Below are positions 19,131 through 20,941 of a stretch of DNA of 64,000 bases, piece after piece (position 1 is the stretch's first letter; the number at the start of each line of letters is the position of its first letter). Made by a program: the position numbers and the translations under genes. Source of the stretch: Escherichia phage vB_EcoM-G157lw. The DNA lies in the sequence record OK331996.1. One strand, given 5' to 3'. The notes under the pieces were generated by a model. The model did no database searches. It was not told where the DNA came from and worked only from the letters and a program-made list of their open reading frames with translations.

Positions 19131-19739
19131 ATGAAAATGCAAAGTGATTTCAATTCAATGTTTGAAGAGTTCCAAAGACAGGTTGATGTTCCAGACCAAT
19201 TATTAAATGCTCTTAAACGTATGGCAGAAGGACGTAATTATTATTGGGGTTCTTCATATGAAACTGTTGAAAATCTTTCTGGAAGATTTTCTAGAGGTAA
19301 AAAGTCTTTAATACGTCCTGGAATACTTATTAACAGTATTGAATCAATTCATTTATTAACATGCGATTTTGACGTTGAATTTACTGATTTTGTTTCTCCT
19401 GAATGGACGGTCTGTTATTTAAACGACGATTATGATTATCTTGGCGTTTATAGTTTAAGTGATGCATGGTTTAAACGTAATTTACAAAAGTCAAATTTAT
19501 TCTATATTGATACTACTGTAAAATTTCAGGGCAAGAAATATTTCTTTACTCTTATAGTTGACTCTGAAACAAAATATGAAAATAAACGTATTCTTAGTAA
19601 AAAGAATATCTTAACTATTGTCGATGATCTTTTTGATAAATTCGTAGAAAATCCCAATTTTGAAAGCGATTTATTATTAGAAAAATTTGTTAAGGAATGT
19701 AGAGAATATGTCAAAACCATCACTATACCTTCCAAGTAA
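19131..19739 (+). CDS. hypothetical protein
   Basis: 202 aa ORF. Confidence 0.6.
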   Translation: MKMQSDFNSMFEEFQRQVDVPDQLLNALKRMAEGRNYYWGSSYETVENLSGRFSRGKKSLIRPGILINSIESIHLLTCDFDVEFTDFVSPEWTVCYLNDDYDYLGVYSLSDAWFKRNLQKSNLFYIDTTVKFQGKKYFFTLIVDSETKYENKRILSKKNILTIVDDLFDKFVENPNFESDLLLEKFVKECREYVKTITIPSK

Positions 19740-20100
19740 ACCGTTGAAGTATGAATTAAAGCGTCAGATAATTTCTACTGATGTGTTAATAGGTCCTGTG
19801 GTAGTTGTATCATTTGTGATTCTGGTGATTGCTGGAATGGTTATAGACGTTATGACTGATATTGAATCTGGTGCAATATTTGGAGCAACACTAATTCTTC
19901 CGTTGGTAGTTCCGCTTTTATTAGTACCTATAAATTGGATAGGATATTGGTATCAAGGAAGACACTATCGTAAACGTGTACGTGATTGGAAAGCTCAGTG
20001 TAAAAAGATTAAAAAGGAACATCAGCTTAAACTTGCTGCGCATGAATTTGATGAAATTATGAAATTTGTTAAGGAATCACGATGCAAAAGCCAAAACTAA
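19708..20100 (+). CDS. small membrane protein, paralog family member A
   Basis: ATG 19708 (track start is TTG); two predicted TM helices; C-terminus FVKESRCK. Confidence 0.55.
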   Translation: MSKPSLYLPSKPLKYELKRQIISTDVLIGPVVVVSFVILVIAGMVIDVMTDIESGAIFGATLILPLVVPLLLVPINWIGYWYQGRHYRKRVRDWKAQCKKIKKEHQLKLAAHEFDEIMKFVKESRCKSQN

Positions 20101-20456
20101 ATAAAGTCAAATATTCTCTTCCTGAGTCATTTTTAATTTTTACTGTAGCGTTGGCTGCATCTCTTGCGGGTAGTCTTTTTGGATTGTTAATTGACTGTCT
20201 TATTTTAAACATCCGTAGTAACGTCAGCGGTATAATAGATATAATAGAAGTTTGGAGTGAACTTCATTATACTATAGCGATTTCATTATTTTCATTCTTT
20301 GGTACAATGTTATATTTTCATTATGATAATTTTAAAATAAATTGGCAAAGAAAAAAAGATTACAAAATACAATTAAAGGAATATAATAGCTACATGTCTT
20401 ATATTGAAAAAGAATCAATGGAAGAGTTTGTGAGTGATTGTAGGAAAATTAAATGA
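20082..20456 (+). CDS. small membrane protein, paralog family member B
   Basis: 124 aa, TM helices, C-terminus EEFVSDCRKIK; RBS AAGGAA. Confidence 0.6.
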   Translation: MQKPKLNKVKYSLPESFLIFTVALAASLAGSLFGLLIDCLILNIRSNVSGIIDIIEVWSELHYTIAISLFSFFGTMLYFHYDNFKINWQRKKDYKIQLKEYNSYMSYIEKESMEEFVSDCRKIK

Positions 20457-20937
20457 TTTTAAAAACTCGCTGGTATGATTTAGATGATGGGGATGATGGC
20501 ATTTCAGTTGATAGAGTTGACTGGAATGGTTGTTCCGAAGATATGAAAAATTTGTTGATTAGGGAGTTTAGAATGGGATATCAAGCAGCTAAGCCATCTA
20601 TTATAACAGATGATAAATTCGTGTGTATTCATAATGGTCGCGCTAAGTTAACGAACGCTGATTGGTTCACAGATAAAATTATGATTCTGTGGTATATTAT
20701 TAGTCTTCCTGTGACATCATTCGTATTTTACTTTTTTATAAAAAATCCAATGGACAGAATAGGAGATTGGATTCTTTTAACCATACTTGTTAATATTTTT
20801 ACTGCAGCAATATTATCTGGGATATGGTGCGTGTTCATTGAAATGCCATGGCGGCTACGCAGACAGCAAAAGATTTTTGATGAAAAGAAATACACTCAAA
20901 ATTTAAATAACTTTATCACTGAATGCAGGAAATTAAA

Positions 20938-20941
<4 letters not shown>
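20453..20941 (+). CDS. small membrane protein, paralog family member C
   Basis: 162 aa, TM helices, C-terminus [10 protein letters not shown]; ATGA overlap with previous gene. Confidence 0.6.

Follow-up and report, generated by a model that had tools for sequence, protein, structure and literature searches.

Do neighbouring phage genes whose products end in nearly the same residues descend from one duplicated gene, or do they encode unrelated proteins that share a peptide? The question is raised by three open reading frames (ORFs) of Escherichia phage vB_EcoM-G157lw (sequence record OK331996.1), of which a stretch of 64,000 nucleotides (nt), here called the window, was analyzed. An earlier note on this DNA had described them as tandem paralogs encoding small membrane proteins of 124-162 residues, with starts at 19708, 20082 and 20453, and its coordinates and sizes are correct (130, 124 and 162 residues). 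What these proteins have in common is a short C-terminal tail, which also ends the product of the gene upstream and which is a portable module and a candidate docking helix, rather than evidence for a duplication.

The genes are readily placed. A 3-kb region of the window (19000-22000) has 98-99% DNA identity to phages CAM-21, RB51, RB68 and wV7 and matches 593 phage records, and on its sequence the source of the window is a Tequatrovirus (T4-like phage). In RB51 the annotated order is e.8, ORF138, e.6, e.5, e.4, e.3, e.2, nudE and e, with the same order in T4, and since RB51 gives these names to the same run, the ORFs at 19708-20100, 20082-20456 and 20453-20941 (all plus strand) can be identified as the T-even genes e.4, e.3 and e.2; they have 98-100% identity to their counterparts in Tequatrovirus of the RB51/CAM-21 type. 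Each is a full-length member of its family: e.4 matches phrog_2604 (E=1.8e-69, residues 1-130 of a 130-position profile), e.3 matches phrog_2330 (E=3.6e-62, residues 1-122 of a 122-position profile), and e.2 matches phrog_2203, labelled ‘membrane protein’ (E=2.2e-79), including both an N-terminal domain with the pattern W..DDG..G.....V.W..C and the tail. In Pfam, the precomputed tags of close homologs are PF26873 for e.4 and PF26896 for e.2. The gene upstream, e.5 (19131-19739, plus strand), encodes a soluble protein of 202 residues (phrog_2607, E=1e-108, and RB51 annotation). The genes themselves are thus already known and catalogued as uncharacterized T4 accessory genes, while the tail that they share may be unreported.

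The shared C-terminal tail

The last ~20 residues of these proteins follow the consensus h-x-x-F-(I/V)-x-x-C-(R/K). In all six reading frames of the window there are three matches to the strict motif F[IV].[ED]C[RK], one each in the consecutive genes e.5, e.3 and e.2, and each is 11 or fewer residues from the stop codon; e.4 joins them under a looser form. A profile of 18 tails scored 21.8, 18.4 and 17.0 bits on the e.5, e.3 and e.2 tails and no more than 7.2 bits elsewhere in the window. This clustering is far beyond chance, and the similarity is specific and conserved, not merely compositional. The CRK(I/L)K ending that the earlier note had attributed to all three membrane proteins needs a correction: the tails are related and as quoted, with e.3 ending in EEFVSDCRKIK, but e.4 carries the shifted variant FVKESRCKSQN (KFVKESRCKSQN), and e.5, which was overlooked, bears the same tail (EKFVKECREYVKTITIPSK).

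Several lines of evidence indicate that the tail is under constraint at the level of the protein. Across Tequatrovirus, Mosigvirus and Dhakavirus the codons of the motif switch (TGT/TGC for Cys, AGG/AGA/CGT/CGC/CGA for Arg, TTT/TTC for Phe) with the residues fixed, and because the codons change while the amino acids stay, the tail as a pure Shine-Dalgarno (SD) artefact can be rejected. A HMMER search with e.2 against 1.84 billion representative proteins returned 14 proteins at E<=1e-3, and relatives at only 25-36% identity still end in FEQFIKECRK, LDNFIKMCRNS, FNNFIKGCRK, FDKFIKGCRNGHN or VERFITECRNLR. The alignment of the e.2 family has 14 invariant columns (W7, D11, D12, G16, V22, W24, C27, G42, Q44, I129, F154, I155, C158 and R159), four of which fall within the six-position tail (P=5e-4); most of the others are in the N-terminal domain, and the sequences of the transmembrane (TM) segments drift. 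The motif is also restricted in its distribution. In a scan of 2.9 million viral contigs from IMG/VR for FIxEC[RS]K at a stop/ATGA junction, real ORF tails were found essentially only at T-even e.x loci. The idea that the motif is widespread in other phages was rejected, as the remaining hits were chance matches in tiny ORFs.

Within the T-even phages the set of proteins that bear the tail changes from genus to genus. In Tequatrovirus the bearers are e.5, e.4, e.3 and e.2; Mosigvirus has these four and a protein of 101 residues; Dhakavirus has an e.5-like protein, an e.3-like protein and e.2; and in Karamvirus-type phages of Enterobacter, Kosakonia and Edwardsiella a tail-bearing e.2 directly overlaps nudE, followed by e. 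Two of these proteins are particularly telling. The Dhakavirus protein of 178 residues at the e.5 position has only 15 residues in common with e.5, LxxF(V/I)xECREYxK (E=3e-4), and the Mosigvirus 101-residue protein, which has two TM segments, shares only the tail with e.3 (E=1.2e-5). The tail is therefore a portable module on otherwise unrelated bodies, and since it also ends proteins of unrelated build it is no evidence for duplication.

The same loci hold other small proteins that were noted in passing. A second C-terminal motif with a Cys, G(A/G)WVSSSxxC followed by a stop, ends the products of three tandem small soluble genes downstream of e.3 in Mosigvirus and Dhakavirus loci, and Karamvirus-type loci have one gene with the related ending WQSSSYQC-stop (family coordinates: locus L007, 3231-4025; L009, 2665-3453; L059, 1374-1571); the window has no member of the G(A/G)WVSSSxxC family. 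A conserved protein of 228 residues (MNGPKTF...HHDDVPRP...EFPMEGW) is encoded directly upstream of e.2 in Dhakavirus, Mosigvirus and Karamvirus types (loci L004, L005 and L059-L063, ~3300-4000), and an acidic protein of 78-83 residues lies between e.2 and nudE in Dhakavirus and Mosigvirus; neither is present in the window.

Outside the tail, the claim of paralogy finds little to stand on. Pairwise BLASTP among e.4, e.3 and e.2 was weak. Family profiles that included Mosigvirus, Dhakavirus and T4/T2 members, although shallow (effective number of sequences, Neff, 1.6-2.0), were compared with hhalign, and only the last 18-23 columns aligned (e.4/e.3, E=1.6e-4; e.3/e.2, E=6e-5; e.4/e.2 not significant). 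Once the tails had been cut off, e.4 and e.3 matched in their first seven residues alone (MSKPSLY/MQKPKLN, P=0.004), and the TM cores of the three proteins had no similarity (P of 0.1 or worse). The similarity is thus confined to the tails and to seven N-terminal residues of e.4 and e.3, the paralogy claim is only partly supported, and the profile comparison does not bear out a tandem paralog array; on present profiles e.4, e.3 and e.2 are not demonstrably duplicates of one another.

True tandem paralogy would mean that e.4, e.3 and the C-terminal half of e.2 come from one duplicated two-TM-plus-tail gene, the cores having diverged and the tail and N-terminus being its remnants. We consider this doubtful, yet with a real chance of being right. 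The three proteins have the same architecture and orientation, BLASTP aligns e.4 and e.3 over their full length (20% identity, E=0.008), and a Foldseek search links e.2 to an unnamed viral protein of 124 residues whose identity is unverified (E=1.3e-3). The heptapeptide common to e.4 and e.3 might be taken in the same sense, but its DNA overlaps the tails of the upstream genes and the similarity may for that reason be part of the repeated junction. Likewise, a natural chimera of e.4 and e.2 (see below) has its point of fusion where TM1 begins in each of the two proteins, but the breakpoint is only a 7-nt microhomology. Against common descent stand the lack of profile similarity in the cores and the presence of the tail on unrelated bodies, which makes it undiagnostic.

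Overlapping genes and repeated junctions

The genes that encode the tail are tightly packed. The overlap and abutment that the earlier note had described, up to and including nudE, were borne out, as was the suggestion of co-translation: e.5/e.4 overlap by 32 nt, e.4/e.3 by 19 nt, and e.3/e.2 and e.2/nudE by 4 nt each, and every start codon is preceded by AAGGA or AGGA at 6-11 nt. From this layout, e.5, e.4, e.3, e.2 and nudE are evidently translated in that order as one overlapping string, with e.5 as its first gene.

The ribosome-binding sites of the string are embedded in the tail codons. Those of e.5 (F-V-K-E-C-R, 19686-19703, plus strand, as for the following) contain the AAGGA SD sequence of e.4 and the left copy of a 16-nt exact repeat, AAATTTGTTAAGGAAT. 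Those of e.4 (F-V-K-E-S-R-C, 20065-20085) contain the AAGGA SD sequence of e.3, its ATG and the right copy of the repeat. The e.3 tail codons (F-V-S-D-C-R, 20427-20444) are followed by AGG AAA, the SD sequence of e.2, and those of e.2 (F-I-T-E-C-R, 20912-20929) belong to a tail whose R-K codons hold the SD sequence AGGA of nudE at a spacing of 7 nt, given the nudE start annotated in RB51 (20938, an ATGA overlap, not 20923). The position of the SD sequence moves among lineages: it is AAG GAA or GAG GAA (K-E or E-E) in some, AAA GGA (K-G) in the Karamvirus type, and AGG AAA (R-K) in e.3 and e.2 of Tequatrovirus. In Dhakavirus, 24 nt separate the motif of the e.5-like gene from the ATG that follows, and this ATG has an SD sequence of its own. 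Because the SD sequence sits in variable positions and moves between lineages, and because the Dhakavirus motif is so far from the next start, the tail is dual-coding: its invariant residues are a feature of the protein, and its variable positions are shaped by the ribosome-binding site.

The same stretches are the points at which genes have been gained and lost. Phage T2 lacks e.2, and at its e.3>nudE junction the e.3 tail passes, from left to right, into the e.2 tail by a crossover within TGCAGGAAA; in the window the endpoints of this indel lie in TGCAGGAAA within the e.2 tail codons and in the e.3 tail. A 141-nt probe of the junction is contiguous in T2, RB32, SA20RB, ECO07P2 and others and is split by ~485 nt in most other phages, which is a clean indel of the size of e.2. 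The 16-nt repeat is common to the e.5/e.4 and e.4/e.3 junctions, where the similarity extends past the ATG, and in Dhakavirus an e.5-type tail leads straight into an e.3-like gene, with no e.4 between them. Because the junctions repeat, they coincide with the endpoints of the indels. A single stretch of DNA thus has three roles, as protein motif, ribosome-binding site and recombination junction, and this bears on how genes may be exchanged in the hyperplastic regions of large phages without loss of expression.

Further rearrangements were seen at the cluster. A natural in-frame chimera of 106 residues, e.4(1-31)::e.2(88-162), is found in Escherichia phage vB_EcoM-UFV05 and four other contigs (record P0143). 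Joined through the microhomology TCCTGTG at the start of TM1, it has lost e.4 beyond residue 31, the whole of e.3 and the e.2 N-terminal domain and keeps the canonical two-TM-plus-tail form. In the T4 reference (L003, 3001-3486) e.2 is frameshifted and annotated with 102 residues, with two in-frame stops before the frame resumes, so that the e.2 product of T4 has neither TM2 nor the tail. The same 102-residue truncation recurs in other phages, among them Yersinia phage fPS-2 (P0192, P0193). On short ENA contigs, foreign helix-turn-helix-like sequence is attached to the N-terminus of e.4 (P0142) and, separately, to the e.2 tail (P0203); a foreign gene could have replaced the central part of the cluster, or the joins could be assembly chimeras.

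In its broadest form, a reading of these features would make the tail a portable address tag at the C-terminus of early proteins that are unrelated, membrane-anchored or soluble, and that change from phage to phage. All of them would dock on a single partner, from the host or the phage, or assemble with one another by way of the conserved Cys, and the coding sequence of the tag would have been co-opted both to bind ribosomes for the gene that follows and to serve as a junction for in-frame recombination. We put this forward tentatively and regard the combination as rather unlikely.

The opposite position is that the tail has no function as a peptide, its conservation being a by-product of ribosome binding, translational coupling and homogenized junction repeats. 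Most junctions do have the SD sequence inside the motif and the next ATG within ~11 nt, junction pairs are alike over ~45 nt, and the indel endpoints fall inside the motif. However, the invariant F, I/V, C and R are not the residues that form the SD sequence, the codons for Cys, Arg and Phe switch under fixed amino acids, and the SD sequence shifts among the x-E, K-G and R-K codons while F-I-x-x-C-R stays. The e.5-like tail of Dhakavirus, 24 nt from the next ATG, is likewise at odds with a role confined to RNA, as is the retention of the tail at 25-30% protein identity, where the DNA can no longer be aligned. We judge a tail without any peptide function clearly improbable.

Topology, expression and candidate roles

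Hydropathy was computed according to Kyte and Doolittle over 19 residues (KD19; usual TM threshold, 1.6). The two hydrophobic helices that had been proposed for each of the three proteins are clear in e.4 (approximately residues 24-46 and 56-79) and in e.2, where a soluble stretch of ~75 residues, by prediction a cytoplasmic N-terminal domain, precedes TM segments at 77-96 and 106-130. In e.3 one segment is clear (17-40), and the second, an aromatic-rich stretch at ~61-80, is marginal, with a KD19 maximum of 1.37. No TM segment was found in e.5. The basic linker that had also been described is real, with 15 (e.4), 10 (e.3) and 9 (e.2) Lys and Arg residues in the segment just after TM2, but the inter-helix loops differ: that of e.2 is charge-balanced, and those of e.4 and e.3, two proteins whose N-termini are basic, are acidic. 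In keeping with the positive-inside rule, e.4, e.3 and e.2 are predicted to be inner-membrane helical hairpins with both ends in the cytoplasm (N-in/C-in). In this topology the cytoplasmic part after TM2 would comprise a juxtamembrane stretch that is strongly basic and a C-terminal helix of ~20 residues.

Structure prediction agrees with a helical tail. An AlphaFold2 model of e.2 from a shallow alignment was unusable (predicted local distance difference test, pLDDT, 51); with diverse homologs the mean pLDDT was 71, and the model has a small N-terminal alpha/beta domain, a helix at 70-97 and a single long helix at 103-160, so that the tail continues the helix of TM2. The hydrophobic moments of the tails are 1.06-1.24, compared with a shuffle mean of ~0.65. 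The tail may thus be a moderately amphipathic cytoplasmic helix, in which, by inspection, the L..FI..C..L spacing would set the Cys on the hydrophobic face.

Known domains and folds offered no lead to function. Searches of Pfam and NCBIfam (both E<=1) and PADLOC with e.5 to e.2 gave nothing above noise, the Pfam copy predating PF26873 and PF26896, and the PADLOC defence-system models had zero matches at E<=1 for e.5, e.4, e.3 or e.2. Fold searches with the e.2 model returned only its own family or generic helical hairpins, and among solved structures searched by sequence the e.2 profile had no match and e.5 nothing meaningful. Several NCBI records name homologs of e.3 and e.4 ‘sulfurtransferase’, a label that was rejected, as no rhodanese or sulfurtransferase domain is detected in Pfam or NCBIfam at E<=1. 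Isolated records call an e.3 homolog ‘DNA primase’ and e.6 ‘host specificity protein’, likewise with no supporting domain. With no domain behind them, these names look like propagated misannotations.

Published T4 data give an outline of when the genes act. In a time-resolved omics study the RNA of e.2-e.5 was early and all four proteins were detected by mass spectrometry, with e.4 and e.5 classed as early, e.2 as middle and e.3 as late proteins (PMC9697503, supplementary files 4 and 6). In CRISPRi-ART data (PMC11879866, supplementary files 8 and 15), e.2, e.3 and e.4 are listed as ‘conserved hypothetical, predicted membrane protein’, prior essentiality is given as unknown for e.2-e.5, and their knock-downs are scored ‘Not Fit’, which stands for no effect on fitness. 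None of these genes is mentioned in the main text of the HIDEN-SEQ preprint.

The reading that we favour, with chances that we regard as even, is that accessory proteins of host interaction share the tail as a cytoplasmic helix for docking or assembly. As a common peptide it would bring a variable accessory set, three proteins anchored in the membrane and one soluble, to one partner or to each other, early in infection and on the membrane's inner face. Their role would be non-essential and of the host-interaction, exclusion or counter-defence type. Several observations weigh against this proposal. No characterized family, defence model, solved structure or fold matches the e.x proteins. The Cys of e.4 sits two residues away from its usual place, and this protein is missed by the strict tail profile; the amphipathicity of each single tail is marginal (P=0.04-0.10). 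The deep conservation of the tail could also partly reflect gene conversion between the junction repeats. Finally, the number of tail-bearing proteins varies from roughly three to five per genus and e.2 is lost or truncated in some phages, and therefore any complex would need to tolerate missing members.

A less specific function of the peptide is quite improbable in our estimate, namely that the tail is a generic in-plane membrane-binding amphipathic helix of the type that targets MinD and FtsA, or a basic C-terminal degron for an AAA+ protease. The hydrophobic moment above the shuffle mean and the flanking Lys and Arg residues would suit the former, and a tail on the soluble e.5 would fit membrane recruitment. 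The basic ends CRKIK, CRKLK and CRK would suit the latter and may resemble the C-motif-2 degrons of ClpX. Membrane-targeting helices and degrons usually tolerate wide sequence variation, however, and here single residues, including a rare Cys, are invariant across four genera; moreover, in e.5 and e.4 further residues follow the motif.

In T4 the genes t, rI and rIII account for lysis and lysis inhibition. That e.4, e.3 and e.2 are holin- or antiholin-like factors that time lysis with the adjacent endolysin e, a role that the earlier note had also entertained, is very unlikely: like holins they are small, have one or two TM segments and end in a basic, highly charged C-terminus, and they lie two genes upstream of the lysozyme gene, but the RNA is early, as are the e.4 and e.5 proteins in T4, the only late-promoter boxes nearby (21382 and 21395) are downstream of the cluster, between nudE and e and directly upstream of e, no holin family is matched (Pfam E<=1, PHROGs E<=0.01), and T4, in which e.2 is naturally disrupted, shows no change in fitness on knock-down (PMC11879866).

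The surroundings of the cluster are as the earlier note had placed them, between the tRNA array (15126-16146) and the lysozyme gene e (21416-21910). The last gene of the coupled string, nudE (20938-21378, plus strand; start per RB51), encodes a Nudix hydrolase (Pfam NUDIX, E=9e-14). A GC-rich stem-loop, AGGGGCTTCGGCCCCT (19095-19110, plus strand), lies between e.6 and e.5 at the upstream edge of the overlapping genes and has no T-run on the plus strand. The window lacks denV, as T4 DenV had no tblastn match in the whole 64 kb; denV directly follows e in RB51 and comes after ipIII and ipII in T4, so that the window differs from both. Instead, a gene for an internal protein of 157 residues (MKTYQEFITEAA..., 21999-22472) directly follows e, a T2-like arrangement. 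An internal-protein-like gene, also for 157 residues (MKSYTQFLNEAVLNEA), lies at 16899-17372, with a late-promoter box, TATAAATA, at 16855 and near-identical stem-loop terminators, AGCCCCAGCCGAAAGGTTGGGGCTTTTT, at 16825-16848 and 17380-17403. The segment 16825-17403 looks like a mobile cassette of the PeSL type discussed below, and the RB51 annotators recorded a 34-bp imperfect direct repeat there.

Comparison with known systems

The closest counterparts are the T4 genes themselves, which have the same synteny (tRNA array, e.8-e.2 run, nudE, e) and 75-100% protein identity and already read ‘conserved hypothetical, predicted membrane protein’ in the T4 annotation. The differences lie in e.3, with 124 residues here and 120 in T4, and in e.2, which is intact at 162 residues here and frameshifted at 102 in the T4 reference. 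The genes e.4-e.2 belong to the ‘dark matter’ of T4; they have long been annotated as predicted membrane proteins, are expressed and are not needed under laboratory conditions. The possible novelty is that their only strongly conserved feature is a short cytoplasmic tail common to unrelated neighbours in at least four Tevenvirinae genera, and such a tail is a concrete and cheap handle on function.

Imm and Sp, the superinfection-exclusion proteins of T4, are small, early, non-essential and located in the inner membrane, and in these respects e.2-e.4 are like them. To our knowledge, neither has the F-I-x-x-C-R tail, and no Pfam or PHROG match of e.4, e.3 or e.2 points to a relationship with Imm or Sp. 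Class II holins are similar in size, in the predicted N-in/C-in two-TM topology, in the basic cytoplasmic C-terminus and in the proximity to an endolysin gene, but differ from the e.x proteins, which are expressed early rather than late, match no holin family and are dispensable in a phage that already has the T holin. The capsid-targeting sequence of the T4 internal proteins (MKTYQEFIxE) offers another parallel, as a short portable peptide on unrelated proteins, encoded in the same genome region and with a core x-F-I-x-E; it is, however, N-terminal and lacks the Cys-Arg pair. A link between the two was rejected, as the tail profile misses the N-termini of the internal proteins in the window, and the resemblance is treated as chance.

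With regard to gene exchange, the nearest known system is the shuffling of PeSL units in T4-like phages (PMC2839356), which similarly involves short boundary repeats, a hyperplastic region and the clean gain or loss of whole accessory genes. The e.x cluster contains no intergenic sigma-70-like promoter with a stem-loop terminator: its genes overlap, leaving no intergenic DNA, and the sole stem-loop is upstream of e.5. A PeSL is an intergenic promoter-plus-terminator unit, whereas the e.x repeat is a coding tail with an SD sequence, which keeps both the reading frames and the translational coupling. If the address-tag proposal were true, whole genes would be swapped into and out of a coupled string with translation unbroken, and the tail would be the coding counterpart of the PeSL cassettes.

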